DNA of 64,000 nt from Escherichia coli (GTDB lineage: Bacteria > Pseudomonadota > Gammaproteobacteria > Enterobacterales > Enterobacteriaceae), in the NCBI RefSeq assembly GCF_045037415.1, contig NZ_CP173438.1; one strand, 5' to 3'. Both the position numbers and the translations under genes were made by a program. Under the pieces are notes generated by a model. The model saw only the letters and a program-made list of their open reading frames with translations, had not been told where the DNA came from and did no database searches. Positions 241-29,837 of this stretch are shown piece by piece (positions within the stretch are counted from its first letter, which is position 1; each line of letters begins with the position of its first letter).

Positions 241-2121
241 TTCCATCGCCTGGCGGATCTGATCCAACGACGCCGGATCATCAATGGTCGTCAGATCCCC
301 AGGATCGCGTCCTTCGCAAATCGCCTGGATCGTGCGGCGCAGCATTTTTCCGGATCGCGTTTTTGGCAATTGCGAGACAAACCAGACGTGCGCCGGGCGG
401 CCAAAGTTGCCAATCTGGCTGTCCACCAGCGCCATAATCGCCTTCTCTTGCGAGTGCGCCACCTCACGGTCTTCCAGACTGTCGCTCTCTTTCGGAATGA
501 CAAACGCCACCGCCACCTGCCCTTTCAGCGCATCTTTCACCCCAACCACCGCCACTTCGGCAACGCCCGGATGACTGGAGATACTCTCTTCAATCTCACG
601 CGTACCCAGCCGATGTCCGGCAACGTTAATCACATCGTCAGTGCGCCCGAGAATAAAGTGATAACCGTCAGCATCGCGGATGCCCCAGTCAAAAGTGGCG
701 TACACCGGACGGGAAAACAGCGACCAGTACGTCTTCACAAAGCGGTCGTCGTCGCCCCAGATGGTCTGAATACAGCCTGGCGGCAATGGCCCCTCCACTA
801 CCAGCATCCCTTTCTCATTGACGCCACACGGTTCGCCGGTGACTTCATTGAGCAACTGCACGTTATAGCCATACATCGGCACGCCGGGGCTTCCCAGACG
901 CGTCGGTCTGTCATCCAGACCGCGAGCAATCGCCATAATCGGCCAGCCGGATTCGGTCTGCCAGTAGTTGTCGATGACCGGCACATCCAGCGTATTGCTC
1001 ACCCAACTGGCGGTCGGCTCGTCCAGCGGTTCTCCAGCCAGATAGAGCACTTCCAGCGACGAAAGATCGTGTTTGCGAATTTCAGCGGTAGGGAATTTTT
1101 TCAGCACGCGAATGGCGGTCGGCGCTGAGAACATGCGGCTAACCTGATATTTCTCGACAATTTTCCACCACACGCCGCAGTCCGGCCAGGTCGGCAATCC
1201 TTCGTAAACGATAGTCGCCATCCCCGCCAGCAGCGGCGCGTAAACGATATACGAATGCCCTACCACCCAGCCGATATCCGAAGCACAAAAGAACACGCCG
1301 CCCGCTTTGCCGCCAAAAATGGTGTCCATCGAGGTCGCCAGCGCCACCGCATATCCGCCGACATCACGCTGCACACCTTTAGGTTTGCCGGTCGTGCCGG
1401 AGGTGTAGAGAATGCAGGAGGTTTCGTTGGATTCCAGCCATGCCACCGGCACCCGCGCGCCGATGTGCTGATGGCGCAACGACGCGAAATCGACATCCCG
1501 CCCGCTAACGCGCGCCATTTTCGCCAGCCCGCGATCCACCAGTAAAACGTGACGCGGCTGATGCTGTGCCTGACTTATCGCATCGTCGAGCAATTTTTTA
1601 TACGGAATGATTTTACCGCCGCGCGCCCCGGCATCAGCCGAGACAATCAGCACCGGTTTAGCGTCATCAATTCGCGCCGCCACGCTGTGCGAGGCAAAAC
1701 CCCCAAACACCACCGAGTGAATAGCACCAATGCGCGCGCAGGCCAGCAGGGTAATATGCGCTTCGGCAATCATCGGCATATACACCAGCACCCGATCGCC
1801 ACGCTGCACGCCCAGCGAGCGCAGCATTGACGCCACCGCATTCACTTCGTCATGCAGTTGGCGGAAGGTAAAGGTACGCTCTTCCTCTGTTTCCGAAGAG
1901 ACGGCAATCAATGCCAGCGCCTCTGGCTGTTTCTCCAGCCAGCGGTCGATAGCGTTGTGACACAAGTTGGTTCGGCCTTCACAAAACCAACGGGCAAACG
2001 GCGGGTTGCTGTGGTCGAGCGTTTGCGTAAAGGGCGTCTGCCAGTCAATACGCCGGGCCTGCTCGGCCCAGAACTGCTCCGGTTCGTTAATCGAACGCTG
2101 ATAAAATTCGCTAAAAGACAT
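235..2121 (-). CDS. prpE: Propionyl-CoA synthetase (acyl-CoA synthetase family)
   Basis: 628 aa ORF; AMP-binding signature YTSGTTGKPKGV seen; last gene of prpBCDE operon by synteny. Confidence 0.95.
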   Translation of the reverse strand: MSFSEFYQRSINEPEQFWAEQARRIDWQTPFTQTLDHSNPPFARWFCEGRTNLCHNAIDRWLEKQPEALALIAVSSETEEERTFTFRQLHDEVNAVASMLRSLGVQRGDRVLVYMPMIAEAHITLLACARIGAIHSVVFGGFASHSVAARIDDAKPVLIVSADAGARGGKIIPYKKLLDDAISQAQHQPRHVLLVDRGLAKMARVSGRDVDFASLRHQHIGARVPVAWLESNETSCILYTSGTTGKPKGVQRDVGGYAVALATSMDTIFGGKAGGVFFCASDIGWVVGHSYIVYAPLLAGMATIVYEGLPTWPDCGVWWKIVEKYQVSRMFSAPTAIRVLKKFPTAEIRKHDLSSLEVLYLAGEPLDEPTASWVSNTLDVPVIDNYWQTESGWPIMAIARGLDDRPTRLGSPGVPMYGYNVQLLNEVTGEPCGVNEKGMLVVEGPLPPGCIQTIWGDDDRFVKTYWSLFSRPVYATFDWGIRDADGYHFILGRTDDVINVAGHRLGTREIEESISSHPGVAEVAVVGVKDALKGQVAVAFVIPKESDSLEDREVAHSQEKAIMALVDSQIGNFGRPAHVWFVSQLPKTRSGKMLRRTIQAICEGRDPGDLTTIDDPASLDQIRQAMEE

Positions 2122-2160
2122 AATGCTCTCCTGTTGAACTTACGCCTTACCGCCGTTTAC

Positions 2161-3612
2161 TTAAATGACGTACAGGTCGAGATACTCATTGACCGGCATC
2201 TGTTCCAGGCGAGTTCTGTCGAGAGAAACCTCCAGAATGCGCTGCTGCTGGCGAGTCGGGAACTGGCGCGCGAGATTGATTTTGAATTTATCGACCAGCT
2301 TCGGAATGCCATCCTGACGGCGGCGAGCATGACCAATTGGGTACTCCACCACCACTTCTTCAAATCGCGTGCCGTCGGTGAACTCAAGGGTTATGGCATT
2401 GGCGATGGCGCGTTTTTCCGGGTCGTGGTAGTCAGCGGTAAACACCGGATCTTCAAAGCAATTGATCTTCTCGCGCAGAGCGTCGATGCGTTTATCTTGC
2501 GCAACGTTGTCCTCGTAATCTGCCGCCGTTAAGCGCCCGAACAGCAGCGGGATCGCCACCATGTACTGAATGCAGTGGTCGCGGTCAGCCGGGTTATTGA
2601 GCGGCCCTTTTTTGTCGATGATGCGAATACAGGCTTCGTGGGTGCGAATGGTCACTTTTTCGATATCCGCCGCCGTTTTGCCTGCTGCCTGCATCTGTTC
2701 ATAGAGCGTCATCGCTGCTTCAACTGCCGTCTGGGAGTGGAACTCCGCCGGGAAGGAGATTTTGAACAGCACATTTTCCATCACGTAAGAACCATACGGG
2801 CGCTGGAAGCGGAACGATTCGCCTTTAAAGGAGACGTCGTAGAAGCCCCACACCGGCGCAGTCAGGGCTGACGGATAACCCATTTCGCCGGTTTTCGCCA
2901 TCAGTGCCAGACGTACCGCGCGGGAAGTGGCATCGCCCGCCGCCCAGGATTTACGCGTACCGGTGTTCGGCGCATGGCGATAGGTGCGCAGCGACTGTCC
3001 GTCTACCCATGCCAGCGAAACGGCGTTGAGAATTTCCTCGCGGGTCAGGCCGAGCATTTCGGCGACCACGGCGGTGGAAGCCACTTTCACTAACAGAACG
3101 TGGTCGAGGCCGACGCGGTTAAAGGAGTTTTCCAGCGCGATGCAGCCCTGAATTTCATGGGCTTTGATCATTGCGGTCAGCACCTGTTTCATGGTCAACG
3201 GCGCTTTGCCGCTGGCGACCGCGTTGCGCGAAAGCCAGTCCGCCGTTGCCAGAATGCCGCCGAGGTTGTCGGAAGGATGCCCCCACTCCGCCGCCAGCCA
3301 GGTATCGTTGAAATCGAGCCAACGGATCATCGCGCCAATGTTAAATGCCGCCTGGACGGGGTCGAGCTGAAACTGAGTTCCGGGGACGCGCACGCCATTG
3401 GGTACGACGGTGCCGGGGACAATTGGCCCCAGCAGTTTTTTACAGGCCGGATATTCGAGAGCTTCCAGACCACAGCCGAGCGTGTCGAGCAGGCAGTAAT
3501 GTGCGGTGTCGTAGGCTACTCTGGAGCTGATTTCGTAGTTCATCACGTAATCGACGATATCAACGATTTCACGATCAAATTCCGGGCGAATGTTGTTGAT
3601 TTGAGCTGACAT
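2161..3612 (-). CDS. prpD: 2-methylcitrate dehydratase (MmgE/PrpD family)
   Basis: 483 aa ORF matching PrpD length and position between prpC and prpE. Confidence 0.95.
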
Positions 3613-3645
3613 TGGGTACGTTTCCTTATTGTTATTCGTAGAGGT

Positions 3646-4815
3646 TTACTGGCGCTTATCCAGCGCGACAAACTGGCGGTCTTCCGGTCCAACATAATTG
3701 GCGGAAGGACGGATAATTTTGTTGTCCTGACGTTGTTCGATAATGTGCGCCGCCCAGCCAGTGACGCGGGCGATAACAAACAGTGGTGTGAATATCTCGG
3801 TGGGAACACCCATCATGTTGTAGGAAACAGCGGAGAACCAGTCGAGATTGGGGAACATCTTTTTGCTCTCCCACATCACTGTTTCCAGGCGATCGGCGAT
3901 GTTGTACATCTTCAGCGAGCCGCCTTCCTGCGAGAGCTGCTTTGCCACGCGTTTGATCACCTGGTGGCGCGGGTCGGCGATGGTATAAACCGGATGCCCA
4001 AAACCAATGACCACTTCTTTGTTTTCCACCCGCTTACGGATATCAGCTTCGGCTTCGTCCGGCGTTTCGTAGCGTTGCTGGATCTCCAGCGACACTTCAT
4101 TCGCTCCGCCGTGTTTCGGCCCGCGCAGTGCGCCAATCGCGCCAATAATGGCGGAATACATATCAGAGCCAGTGCCCGCAATCACCCGGCTGGTAAAGGT
4201 GGAAGCGTTAAACTCGTGTTCGGCGTACAGCACCAGCGAAATATGCATCGCCTTTTCCCAGCTTTGCGACGGCTTTTCGCCGTGCAGCAGATGCAGGAAG
4301 TGACCGCCGATAGAGTCGTCATCGGTTTCCGGCTGAATGCGTTCGCCGTTGTGGCTGTAGTGATACCAGTAGAGAAGAATCGAGCTAAGTGACGCCAGCA
4401 GTTTGTCGGCAATATCCCGTGCGCCAGAGACGGTATGCCCCTCTTTTTCTGGCAGCGTGCAGCCGAGCGCGGAAACGCCGGTGCGCATAACATCCATCGG
4501 GTGTGACGCCGCCGGTAAGGCTTCCAGCACGGTACGCACGTTAGCCGGTAAACCACGCAGGGCTTTCAGTTTCGTTTTGTAGGCGGCGAGTTCGTCACGG
4601 GTTGGCAGTTTGCCGTGGATCAGCAGATGCGCCACTTCTTCAAATTCACAATGTTCCGCCAGATCAAGAATATCGTAGCCACGGTAATGCAGGTCGTTGC
4701 CGCTTTTACCCACGGTGCAGAGCGCCGTATTGCCCGCCGGAACGCCGGAAAGTGCCACCGATTTTTTCGGTTTAATGACATGGGTACTGTTTTGCAGGAT
4801 CGTTGTGTCGCTCAT
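3646..4815 (-). CDS. prpC: 2-methylcitrate synthase (citrate synthase family)
   Basis: 389 aa ORF; citrate-synthase motif [10 protein letters not shown] seen; synteny. Confidence 0.95.
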
Positions 4816-7791: not shown

Positions 7792-8067
7792 TTACTTCTT
7801 CTTATAAATATTTGCCGTGCCGTGGATCTTATTGTCAGTTTGACCAGAGGTCAGTACCAACACATCAGCCCCTTTTTCATCGGCTTTTTTGATCAAATCT
7901 TCTTTCGCATCTGCGGTCGACATTTCATTACTGGTTGAAATATCACCTATTTTTTCATATTGCGATGCAACCTTTTCAAATTCCGCTTTGGTCATTAATT
8001 CTGCGGCATAGACATTGGTAACGGCAAACGCTAACGCACCGACTAACATTTTAGAGATTATTTTCAT
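7792..8067 (-). CDS. yahO: Small periplasmic protein YahO (DUF1471 family), signal peptide
   Basis: 91 aa ORF with N-terminal signal peptide ([21 protein letters not shown]); position next to prpR as in K-12. Confidence 0.85.
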
Positions 8068-8213
8068 ATTACGGCTCCAGAGTTGTTATCACACTATCAC
8101 CCACCCACATTATTGGGTTGATTAATAATTAGTTCAGTCAGGGCATAAACGCCAGTAACCGGAAATAAGACACTTTGTGATCTCTCTCGCACCCGATTAT
8201 TTTTGGTAGAAAT

Positions 8214-8885
8214 ATGATGAAGTTACTTCACTTATTTATGGATGAAATCACTATGGATCCTTTGCACGCCGTTTACCTGACCGTAGGATTGTTCGTGATT
8301 ACTTTTTTTAATCCGGGAGCCAATCTCTTTGTGGTAGTACAAACCAGCCTGGCTTCCGGTCGACGCGCGGGGGTGTTGACCGGGCTGGGCGTGGCGCTGG
8401 GCGATGCATTTTATTCCGGGTTGGGTTTGTTTGGTCTTGCAACGCTAATTACGCAGTGTGAGGAGATTTTTTCGCTTATCAGAATCGTCGGCGGCGCTTA
8501 TCTCTTATGGTTTGCGTGGTGCAGCATGCGCCGCCAGTCAACACCGCAAATGAGCACACTACAACAACCGATTAGTGCCCCCTGGTATATCTTTTTCCGC
8601 CGTGGATTAATTACCGATCTCTCTAACCCGCAAACCGTTTTATTTTTTATCAGTATTTTCTCAGTAACATTAAATGCCGAAACACCAACATGGGCACGAT
8701 TAATGGCCTGGGCGGGGATTGTGCTCACATCAATTATCTGGCGAGTCTTTCTAAGCCAGGCGTTTTCTTTGCCCGCTGTGCGTCGTGCTTATGGGCGTAT
8801 GCAACGCGTTGCCAGTCGGGTTATTGGTGCAATTATTGGTGTATTCGCGCTACGCCTGATTTACGAAGGGGTGACGCAGCGGTGA
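8214..8885 (+). CDS. yahN: LysE/RhtB-family amino acid exporter
   Basis: 223 aa hydrophobic ORF with LysE-type N-terminus; synteny. Confidence 0.85.
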   Translation: MMKLLHLFMDEITMDPLHAVYLTVGLFVITFFNPGANLFVVVQTSLASGRRAGVLTGLGVALGDAFYSGLGLFGLATLITQCEEIFSLIRIVGGAYLLWFAWCSMRRQSTPQMSTLQQPISAPWYIFFRRGLITDLSNPQTVLFFISIFSVTLNAETPTWARLMAWAGIVLTSIIWRVFLSQAFSLPAVRRAYGRMQRVASRVIGAIIGVFALRLIYEGVTQR

Positions 8886-9692
8886 GCAGATAATTTACTC
8901 TCTACGTAATCAACCTGATTTGCCGAATCCCAACCATCGGCGATGATAGCCCCCGTAATGCGTGGTCCTTATTTCCGATAAGTTTACTTGAGTCTTTAGC
9001 TTCCCATTTCAGCCTACTCTCCCCTGTGTGGGCTTTTTCATTGGTCTGACCCGTCCTGAATAGCCAAACAATGGCAATGTTCCACTTTGCAGGGATGATA
9101 ATAAGGGGATCTGATTCAGAAGAGTTTTGAAAAGTTGGACCGCCATCGAGGCCTCGAACCCCGTACCATACAACAATCCTGGTTGTCGTCTGCTCTTCCT
9201 GATGAGCTAATGGCGGTTTTTGATATGAGCCTTACAGCATATTTTCTGTCAGGCTTGAGTGCGATGCGTAAGATACAGAAAAGCCCCCACACAAACATGA
9301 TGGAATTATGATTTTTTTCATATGAATGTCAACCCACACATTCACAAAACATCTGTATGAGAACATTTTTTATACACCATATAGCTGCGAAACCACTGCT
9401 GGTGCTTTTTTAAGCGAAACTTCGTCGATCACAACAAAATATCGGCGAAAAAGGAGGGGGAATGCCATTTGGCATACAGATATACAGATGAAATGATGAC
9501 CTGCTTTGCGATTCACTCTCTGGTGGAATAACAACTTGCAGGTGGCTCTCTTAAATAAAAATAAACGTCGCAGATAATAAAGCTCTGATTAAACCAGACA
9601 CTATCAGAAATCGCTCATAACTAACGTGTAAAGTAGTAGAGTTAATTTAACAATCTGAATTTACGCTATAGGTTTACCACTACTTTGATATT

Positions 9693-9732
9693 ATTTCGCT
9701 CTCCTTAACTAAAAAGTTAAGGAGAGCGAAAT
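9693..9732 (-). terminator. Perfect 17 bp stem-loop (ATTTCGCTCTCCTTAAC-taaaaa-GTTAAGGAGAGCGAAAT) 36 bp downstream of yahK stop; probable terminator
   Basis: Exact inverted repeat read directly from sequence; no clean U-tract, so terminator function is uncertain. Confidence 0.45.
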
Positions 9733-9768
9733 TAATATGTTAAACCACAGGATATTTATTAATTTTTT

Positions 9769-10818
9769 TCAGTCTGTTAGTGTGCGATTATCGATAACAA
9801 AACGATATTTCACATCACCACGCAGCATTCGCTCATAGGCTTCATTAATTTGATCGGCCCGAATCATCTCTATATCAGCCACGATGCCATGTTCGGCGCA
9901 AAAATCGAGCATCTCCTGAGTTTCTGGAATGCCGCCAATCATAGAACCAGCTATCGCGCGGCGTTTCATGATCAGGTTGAAAACTTCCGGCGATTTATGC
10001 GGTGTCGCAGGCGCACCAACCAGCGTTATGGTGCCATCGCGCTTCAGCAAGGTGGTAAAATCGTCGAGATTATGTGGCGCAGCTACTGTATTCAAAATGA
10101 AATCGAAACTCTTCACATGAGCCACCATCTCATCGGCATTGCGTGAGTTAACAACTTCATCGGCCCCCAGGGCTTTTGCCGCTTCGCGTTTTGACTCAGA
10201 AGTGGTAAATGCCACCACATGCGCCCCCATCGCGTGGGCCAGTTTAATCCCCATATGTCCCAGACCGCCGATGCCGACCACGCCCACTTTTTTACCCGGC
10301 CCGGCCTGCCAGTGGCGTAGCGGCGAGTACGTGGTGATTCCTGCACACAATAAAGGAGCCACCGCCGCCAGCTGCTCTTGCGGGTGACGAATACGCAGAA
10401 CATATCGCTCATGAACGACGATCTGTTGTGAGTAGCCTCCCAGAGTATGGCCCGGTTCATCCGGTGTCGGCGAGTTATAGGTTCCGGTCATGTGATCACA
10501 GTAGTTTTCCAGCCCGTCTTCACACTCTTCGCAATGTTTACAACTGTCGACAATGCAGCCGACACCGACCAGATCGCCCGGCGCATGTTTTTCTACCTGA
10601 TCACCAACGGCTACCACGCGCCCCACAATTTCATGACCCGGCACGCAGGGGTAAACCGTCCCCGCCCACTCCGAACGGACCTGGTGGAGATCGGAATGGC
10701 AGACGCCACAGTAAGCGATTTCGATTTTGACATCATGCGGTCCCGGTTCACGCCGGGTGATATCCATCGGTTCAAGCGGTTGTTTAGCGGAATATGCACC
10801 AACAGCTTTGATCTTCAT
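9769..10818 (-). CDS. yahK: NADPH-dependent aldehyde reductase, zinc-type alcohol dehydrogenase family
   Basis: 349 aa ORF; Zn-ADH signature GHEIVGRV and CxxC structural-zinc cysteines seen. Confidence 0.9.
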   Translation of the reverse strand: MKIKAVGAYSAKQPLEPMDITRREPGPHDVKIEIAYCGVCHSDLHQVRSEWAGTVYPCVPGHEIVGRVVAVGDQVEKHAPGDLVGVGCIVDSCKHCEECEDGLENYCDHMTGTYNSPTPDEPGHTLGGYSQQIVVHERYVLRIRHPQEQLAAVAPLLCAGITTYSPLRHWQAGPGKKVGVVGIGGLGHMGIKLAHAMGAHVVAFTTSESKREAAKALGADEVVNSRNADEMVAHVKSFDFILNTVAAPHNLDDFTTLLKRDGTITLVGAPATPHKSPEVFNLIMKRRAIAGSMIGGIPETQEMLDFCAEHGIVADIEMIRADQINEAYERMLRGDVKYRFVIDNRTLTD

Positions 10819-11194
10819 TGTGTTTACTCCTGATTAGCTATGTGTATTTGACGATGCCTGATATGTCATCGCGGCAAAACGCGTCCATTGAATATAGCCA
10901 ATATTTAAACCACCCGATCCAGCCCTAACATGCCGCGAGCCTGAATGAAACAGAGCAGCAACGTTCCCCATAAGGCGAGCGCCTATAAGTGTGATATTTG
11001 CTATCCGTAAAAGACAAAAATCGGCAAAACTGATGATATTTTCACGTAGACAAATAGTTATCTACACAACGTCAATAAGGGCATATTCTTCAAAGATAAT
11101 GTCCATTTCTGCCGACACACTCATACTCAGGCCGCCCCACTCCCTGGGGCTTAAATCTCTTACTGTTCACCGTTGCAAACATATCAAGTTCGTA

Positions 11195-29520: not shown

Positions 29521-29798
29521 TGATTCAAAATGTCAGATTCCTACGTTTTCCTCAATTCTTCCATAAAAAAACAGCCCATTCAATTAAATAAAACACATAA
29601 CATGTTGATATTTCTAGCTAAAGTAAAATAACCCTATGATTTGAAATGATTAATCACAAAGGTCATACCAGTGATTAACTTTCGCCCATATCGTTAAATA
29701 ACACAAAATTAAAAACAATAAAAATCAAACAAATTAGATTTATATTCCAAGAAAATTAAATATTCAGGCTATTAAACCAAACCTGACATTTTGAATCA
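29521..29798. other. Candidate invertible DNA element (phase switch): 278 bp segment bounded by perfect 16 bp inverted repeats
   Basis: TGATTCAAAATGTCAG at 29521-29536 and its exact reverse complement CTGACATTTTGAATCA at 29783-29798; right end also forms palindrome CCTGACATTTTGAATCAAAATGTCAGG (29782-29808); lies between recombinase stop (29508) and regulator start (29838); internal sequence very AT-rich. Confidence 0.6.
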
Positions 29799-29837
29799 AA
29801 ATGTCAGGTTTTGTAGCAATGGCGTGGACGAGTCTGA

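Follow-up and report, generated by a model that had tools for sequence, protein, structure and literature searches.

A yahL-less allele of the yahN-yahK interval in Escherichia coli with a hairpin at the likely 3' end of yahK mRNA and a conserved tRNA-like element

Layout of the yahN-yahK interval

We analysed a window of 64,000 nucleotides (64 kb) from Escherichia coli contig NZ_CP173438.1 (assembly GCF_045037415.1), to which all positions below refer unless stated otherwise. In this window, yahN (8214-8885, plus strand) and yahK (9769-10818, minus strand) are separated by a gap of 883 bp (8886-9768). A prediction made earlier from the sequence alone (hereafter, the original prediction) had described a gap of ~880 bp with no ORF of 60 aa or more except a doubtful one, and this description proved accurate: the ORF listing contains a single ORF of at least 60 aa within the gap (9116-9298, minus strand; exactly 60 aa), and neither this ORF nor the remaining ORFs of 33-58 aa had any match in Pfam. 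Likewise, no significant match was obtained for YahL, YahM or the small ORFs of the gap in Pfam, PHROGs, PADLOC or NCBIfam. Judged from these sequence searches, the gap is without a credible ORF. The GC content of the spacer is 40%, against 49% for the 64-kb window, and the spacer is AT-rich, Escherichia-specific and partly phage-derived. We assigned the following features to the gap.

8902-9146, minus strand: yahM pseudogene (annotation of the identical strain Nord8 as 'frameshifted', translation and alignment)
9011-9038, plus strand: putative yahN intrinsic terminator, with a T-run after a 7-bp stem (9011-9017 / 9028-9034; folds)
9136-9216, minus strand: tRNA-like element of 81 nt with a CCA end (ARAGORN, phage matches and conservation)
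9217-9298, minus strand: leader of the tRNA-like/yahM transcript, with two predicted hairpins and a transcription start near 9298
9305-9332, minus strand: sigma-70 promoter yahMp, TTGACA-16-CATAAT (near-consensus, 11 of 12 matches)
9545/9546, no strand: yahL indel junction (alignment to K-12; 71-nt junction counted across genomes)
9546-9692, minus strand: what is left of the K-12 yahK-yahL spacer, with 89.8% identity to K-12
9690 and 9692, minus strand: positions homologous to the K-12 RNA 3' ends 344013 and 344011, 77-79 nt after the yahK stop codon (PMC7815308, supplementary file 1)
9693-9732, minus strand: perfect hairpin (inverted-repeat search, folding, copy count and homologous K-12 Term-seq ends)

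A single indel separates the short allele from K-12

The original prediction had placed yahL and yahM between yahK and yahN in K-12. This placement was correct, as the K-12-derived chromosome (L002) carries both yahM (81 aa) and yahL (271 aa; L002 positions 2361-3176) in a yahN-yahK gap of 1732 bp. In the alignment of the two gaps, 8886-9545 of the window is 96.1% identical to the left block of K-12 and 9546-9767 is 89.8% identical to the right block, while the 835 bp separating the two blocks in K-12 are absent from the window. The absent block corresponds to the yahL coding sequence together with short flanks, 13 nt at the 3' end and 6 nt at the 5' end. At the junction, which is clean, the alignment to K-12 shows neither microhomology nor a target duplication. 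With gaps of 883 and 1732 bp, respectively, the objection that the interval is identical to that of K-12, and that yahL and yahM are simply smaller than supposed, does not hold.

The short allele is by no means peculiar to this strain. We detected its 71-nt junction sequence in 1072 of the 5426 complete E. coli genomes, among them those of strains Nissle 1917, ATCC 25922, ATCC 11775, E2348/69 and SE15, and yahL was found in 4014-4076 of the same 5426 genomes. The segment 8886-9768 is a common, lineage-typical short allele of E. coli, which lacks yahL through one 835-bp indel relative to K-12. The distribution of yahL bears on a practical issue. YahL has been reported as exclusive to E. coli and Shigella, and for the monitoring of water the gene was published as a qPCR target representing a 'conserved signature' of E. 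coli/Shigella (PMC11057252). Nevertheless, the gene is missing from ~20-25% of complete E. coli genomes, B2-type strains (Nissle, ATCC 25922 and E2348/69) included. Because yahL is absent there, the yahL-based assay would miss these three strains and other yahL-less strains.

Whether yahL was lost from the short allele or gained elsewhere was considered in the light of related genomes. In E. albertii, yahN is followed by a yahM-like stretch, the tRNA-like element and then directly by yahJ, with neither yahK nor the hairpin; the corresponding position is occupied by SNF2-helicase and EH_Signature genes in other Escherichia lineages, and Salmonella bongori and Citrobacter carry unrelated genes immediately after yahN. 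The yahL site was absent from every context of YahN homologues compared, and thus no outgroup carries it. A search of 5.8 billion proteins yielded 61 clusters of YahM homologues, which are restricted to E. coli and Shigella. P0050 and P0057, two divergent 'YahM' proteins, were discarded as candidate outgroups, as both derive from error-prone E. coli assemblies. We lean weakly towards loss of yahL in the short allele, since (i) the GC content of yahL (39%) equals that of its flanks (40%), and (ii) the short allele decays further. Regarding the 'deletion remnant' of the original prediction, the difference from K-12 is real (the 835-bp yahL block is absent and yahM is frameshifted), and the direction of the change leans only weakly to loss.

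Rearrangements are seen around the interval in other genomes. IS1 insertions recur in the AT-rich yahK-yahN interval of other strains (L085, 2527-3300, is one example); in strain BDSF8-3, the left hairpin arm is interrupted by IS1, and a deletion has removed yahK and the adjacent genes up to betT. The DNA to the right of ~9355, past the promoter of the tRNA-like element, is wholly different among Escherichia species (comparisons with L095, L097, L099 and L102): yahK, alone or accompanied by yahL, is found there in E. coli and yahJ in E. albertii, and the other lineages have the SNF2-helicase and EH_Signature genes, possibly a defence island. This region looks like a hotspot of gene turnover. 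Between yahK and yahJ, we also noticed a 75-bp gene fragment (10905-10979, minus strand), which related strains annotate as a partial hypothetical protein without its N-terminus; in O157:H7 (L090), an intact ABC-transporter permease gene adjoins yahK at the position of this fragment.

A single-copy hairpin downstream of yahK

The two arms of the hairpin (9693-9710 and 9715-9732) are 18 nt each, 100% complementary and 4 nt apart, making the element the longest perfect short-range inverted repeat of the window. The perfect stem-loop of the original prediction is therefore present as described, and its 17-bp stem and 6-nt loop correspond to this structure minus the closing T:A pair. The stem can be extended by A/U pairs to about 9687-9738, and G-C pairs account for 7 of the 18 core pairs (39%). 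Structure prediction yielded a stable fold on either strand (-30 to -34 kcal/mol; z-scores of -6.8 to -10), and none of 200 shuffled sequences folded as well. The hairpin begins 36 nt past the yahK stop codon and is the only strong structure downstream of this gene.

The hairpin element, which is specific to E. coli and single-copy, was found in about 5075 of the 5426 complete genomes (~93%); the palindrome matches itself on both strands, which explains a median of two 'places' in each genome. No second copy was found in the window, and the element belongs to neither REP/BIME, ERIC nor similar multi-copy repeats. No homologue of the hairpin was found downstream of 80 non-Escherichia yahK homologues, among the matches listed. 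In Rfam, no family reached its gathering threshold (the best was mir-87, with 25.6 bits against a threshold of 49), and the sub-threshold matches are to generic microRNA-type hairpin models, i.e., chance matches.

The hexamer AAGGAG, which the original prediction had pointed out within the stem as resembling a Shine-Dalgarno sequence, does lie there (9719-9724, plus strand). It occurs on the opposite strand as well, because the element is a palindrome, CTCCTTAAC...GTTAAGGAG. If the hairpin were a riboregulator or small RNA, it would sequester this hexamer from a small plus-strand ORF (9737-9838), the ATG of which lies 12 nt downstream of AAGGAG. Nevertheless, the ORF is 33 aa long in this allele only and 19 aa long in five other alleles, because the length of a T-run differs, and it has no match in Pfam; this ORF is not a gene. 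Moreover, K-12 Term-seq recorded no 3' end on the strand opposite to the hairpin, equivalent to the plus strand here (PMC7815308). Together with the absence of an Rfam family, these observations leave the suggestion of a small RNA or riboregulator using AAGGAG unsupported for the hairpin, and we regard it as extremely improbable.

Elsewhere in the window, near-perfect palindromes were noticed at 34828-34868 and 29776-29814 (arms of 20 and 19 nt, respectively, 95% complementary and 1 nt apart), which look like operators or terminators.

Alleles of the hairpin and the origin of perfect pairing

The left arm of the hairpin, ATTTCGCTCTCCTTAAC, was identical in all of the 10 strains compared, and the right arm was variable. 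Four right arms were distinguished.

GTTAAGGAGAGCGAAAT: perfect pairing; this window and Nord8
GTTAAGGAGAGCGAAGT: one G.U pair; CMZE046 and SE15 type
GTTAAGTGGAGCGAAGT: one mismatch and two wobbles; Nissle, ATCC 25922 and E2348/69 type
GTTAAGTGGAGAGCGAAGT: TG bulge and one G.U pair; K-12, 042 and O157, and all long alleles seen

Exact 76-mers of the short-allele hairpins were found in 404 (perfect), 133 (one G.U pair) and 544 (mismatch) records, the sum of which (1081) is close to the number of short junctions (1072). All alleles preserve the structure, as their fold energies were -30, -23 and -21 kcal/mol (z-scores between -5.7 and -9.9). Outgroup comparison of the sequences indicates that the bulged hairpin, which most E. 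coli have, is ancestral, and that the perfect hairpin of this window is the derived state of one sublineage. Perfect pairing would have been reached via two steps in the right arm, i.e., loss of the TG bulge and then a G to A change, both of which improve the pairing.

Hairpin-templated (quasi-palindrome) mutation yields changes in one arm that improve pairing, and hotspots of this kind are known in E. coli. The hairpin resembles such hotspots in that an imperfect repeat was perfected in one arm, with a 2-nt bulge removed and a G.U pair turned into A-U. It is unlike them in that the change proceeded in two separate steps instead of one concerted event, the intermediate being retained in 133 genomes. 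On this analogy, the two steps may reflect hairpin-templated mutation, although the two mutational steps are the whole basis for this suggestion. We also considered a single concerted origin of three right-arm changes, a scenario weakened by the intermediate allele in those 133 genomes. In any case, the hairpin alleles provide a natural, countable series from an imperfect to a perfect palindrome (544, 133 and 404 genomes).

The variation of the hairpin also bears on two alternative views of the element. Firstly, the palindrome might have no selected function, being a relic of a horizontally acquired, decaying spacer, with the RNA ends described below as a by-product. The AT-rich (40% GC against 49% for the window), E. 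coli-specific nature of the spacer, its decay (yahL lost, yahM broken and recurrent IS1 insertions) and the difference in the right arm between lineages are consistent with such a relic. On the other hand, the left arm and the loop are identical across the alleles seen, all right-arm changes seen keep or improve the fold, and about 93% of genomes have kept the element, so that we consider a neutral relic unlikely. Secondly, the inverted repeat could act as DNA, either in the role of an operator bound by a dimeric regulator or in that of a recombination site. Its perfect two-fold symmetry with TTAAC/GTTAA half-sites, and the one strain with IS1 inside the left arm, would fit with such a site. 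Nevertheless, no regulator gene is adjacent, the element is located downstream of a gene and not at a promoter, the 2-nt bulge in K-12 and most alleles disrupts the spacing of the half-sites, and the yahL junction is 147 bp off, not at the hairpin. A DNA-level site thus seems highly improbable.

RNA 3' ends at the base of the homologous hairpin in K-12

Term-seq of MG1655 (Adams et al. 2021; PMC7815308, supplementary file 1) recorded a 3' end at 344013 (plus strand of K-12) in LB at OD 2.0, with ~1131 reads, and another at 344011 (plus strand) in M63, with ~745 reads. The ends were thus detected in two of three conditions with modest counts (~750-1130), and were classed as 'orphan' without discussion in the same study. 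As the printed Term-seq sequences include 10 nt downstream of the end, the two ends lie 3 and 1 nt, respectively, beyond the homologous core stem (...GCGAAAUAAU-3') on the strand of yahK. To transfer the K-12 coordinates to the window, we used L002 and an offset of 776, which reproduces the distances to yahL (-163/-165) and yahM (-14) given in that study (PMC7815308). RNA 3' ends at the base of this stable hairpin in vivo are consequently seen in the K-12 homologue of the element. yahK has no entry in the TERMITe supplement.

A Rho termination region peaks at 344049 (plus strand of K-12; Rho score of 3.61, p = 1.8e-5; PMC7815308, supplementary file 2), 36 nt downstream of the K-12 3' ends and homologous to about 9655 in the window. 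Inhibition of Rho by bicyclomycin thus increases read-through here in K-12, albeit at a coarse resolution, as the score was computed over 800-nt windows. Because of these 800-nt windows, the score could instead reflect silencing by Rho of transcription in the yahL region, not termination of yahK. No C-rich, G-poor rut-like tract was found in the 150 nt past the hairpin, where C and G are about equal and both low.

The original prediction had listed a terminator among the possible functions of the hairpin. What stands of this proposal is that the K-12 3' ends, on the strand of yahK, map to the base of the homologous stem; a U-tract is absent 3' of the stem on that strand, where the tail reads AAUAAUAUCAAAG, and the site falls in a Rho-dependent region (PMC7815308). 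A true Rho-independent terminator of yahK would require the long stem to release the polymerase without a U-tract. The K-12 ends 1-3 nt past the stem and the high stability of the stem (-30 kcal/mol) agree with this scenario. Nevertheless, the tail holds no U-run, the consensus terminator scan of 8000-11000 returned 0 terminator-like sites, the site is within a bicyclomycin-sensitive region, and G-C pairs make up only 7 of 18, rendering an intrinsic terminator of yahK improbable. The hairpin is like intrinsic terminators in being a stem-loop after a gene with RNA ends adjoining it, but unlike them in lacking the U-tract and in its unusually long stem (18-23 bp) with only 39% G-C.

In a model from the mapping of 3' ends in E. 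coli, RNA at Rho-dependent transcript ends is trimmed back to a protective hairpin, and REP-type mRNA stabilisers act similarly to protective 3' stem-loops. The yahK hairpin resembles Rho-dependent ends with a protective stem-loop, as (i) a stable stem follows soon after the stop codon, with the 3' ends at its base, and (ii) bicyclomycin-sensitive read-through occurs just downstream in K-12, with no U-tract. It differs from them in having no evident rut-like C-rich tract, and stabilisation by the stem is only putative; it also differs from REP/BIME in being single-copy.

The absence of a U-tract and the Rho-dependent termination region lead us to regard the element as a 3'-end-defining stem-loop and not as a canonical intrinsic terminator. 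Most likely, the hairpin marks the 3' end of the yahK mRNA, an end of an ordinary kind, and is not a canonical intrinsic terminator, small RNA or riboregulator. RNA polymerase would transcribe through the hairpin from yahK and stop in the U/A-rich DNA just past it, at least partly through Rho; 3'-to-5' exonucleases would then trim the yahK RNA back to the base of the stem, and the remaining stem would protect the message. We infer that the same process operates in this strain as in K-12, that the 3' end is made by trimming and not by direct termination, and that the stem stabilises the yahK mRNA. We put a probability of about 70% on the overall reading, i.e., a short allele in which the hairpin is the yahK 3'-end stem-loop left after termination just downstream, in part by Rho. 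Since the right arm varies and 544 genomes have a mismatch, the yahK 3' end could also be an incidental consequence of a neutral palindrome.

A tRNA-like element derived from phage argN

Both the hairpin and the missing ORFs are ordinary, and the real lead of the interval is a tRNA-like RNA. The tRNA-like element (9136-9216, minus strand) lies 480 bp from the hairpin, overlaps the start codon of yahM and is located 82 nt downstream of the near-consensus promoter, which is conserved across Escherichia. The promoter and start are supported by previous work on yahM: the primer used for cloning the yahM 5'-UTR starts at the sequence homologous to 9298 (PMC7815308), and a reporter study confirmed the yahM transcription start and identified IHF as a repressor (bioRxiv 10.1101/2025.05.13.653802).

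ARAGORN recovered a 7-bp acceptor stem, a D arm, a T arm with a TTCGA loop and the CCA end, and both the minimum-energy and consensus folds are cloverleaf. A canonical anticodon arm (5-bp stem, 7-nt loop and U33) was not found: 27 nt lie between the D and T arms, against ~22, and the arm has A in place of U33 or, alternatively, a 7-bp stem with a 6-nt loop. The Rfam tRNA model gave no match to the element at E <= 10.

The element is 75-85% identical to the tRNA-Arg at the argN position in the ileZ-argN-argO cluster of Stx/lambdoid phages. Its closest phage relative is an unannotated variant at the argN position of phiP27, with 85% identity. Compared with the phage argN tRNA-Arg(UCG), the cluster of which lies upstream of stx, the element has an identical acceptor stem and discriminator-CCA and a single differing position in the T arm; its D arm is exactly that of the phiP27 form and not that of the annotated argN. 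Unlike phage argN, the element is chromosomal with its own sigma-70 promoter, and its anticodon arm has been replaced by a longer, non-canonical one. The exact chromosomal variant was absent from the viral contigs of IMG/VR, in which the phiP27-type variant was found instead.

Conservation was assessed by aligning five alleles from E. coli with two loci from E. albertii and three from other Escherichia. Within the element, variation was confined to 2 of 81 columns, one of which shows a change from G.U to G-C in the T stem; in the adjoining leader, 27 of 84 columns varied (Fisher p = 2e-7). The identity of yahN between the same Escherichia species is only 79-85%. The exact 81-mer was present in 4821 of 5170 E. 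coli records, and a scan of metagenomes retrieved one further E. albertii contig and nothing else. The conserved non-coding RNA region of the interval spans 9136-9298 (minus strand).

In K-12, Term-seq detected a strong 3' end (345390) within the element, with ~1300-4400 reads in all three conditions, and a Rho region within yahM (peak at 345585, score of 6.2, p = 3e-33; PMC7815308). A 3' end inside the element together with a Rho region inside yahM is a pattern typical of untranslated RNA. From the contrast in conservation, as well as this pattern, we think that purifying selection acts on the tRNA-like RNA and that yahM probably does not represent a genuine gene.

The near invariance of the tRNA-like RNA suggests a domesticated derivative of a phage tRNA, and also that yahM, a long-standing y-gene, may be mis-annotated. 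It is attractive to speculate, albeit tentatively, that the element is a functional, undescribed ncRNA gene of Escherichia, domesticated from argN of a lambdoid phage with its anticodon arm remodelled, and that yahM is the Rho-terminated sequence downstream of it and not a protein gene. No published description of the tRNA-like RNA was found in our literature search, the scope of which excluded the supplementary tables of other studies.

yahM and the putative terminator of yahN

The yahM ORF of the window ends after 45 codons, against 81 in K-12, because of a change from T6 to T5 at 9034-9038, and yahM was frameshifted in all six short alleles of which the annotation was inspected. The ORF is diverged in E. 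albertii and deleted in other Escherichia lineages.

The putative terminator of yahN (9011-9038, plus strand) lies antisense within the yahM ORF, and its T-run is the site of the yahM 'frameshift'. Folds and alignment indicate that it is conserved in K-12 and E. albertii, and no 3' end at this position was recorded by K-12 Term-seq (PMC7815308). Judging from its stem and T-run, this segment is likely an intrinsic terminator of yahN. In E. albertii, conservation of the 3' half of 'yahM' may accordingly reflect the 3' UTR of yahN, not coding constraint.
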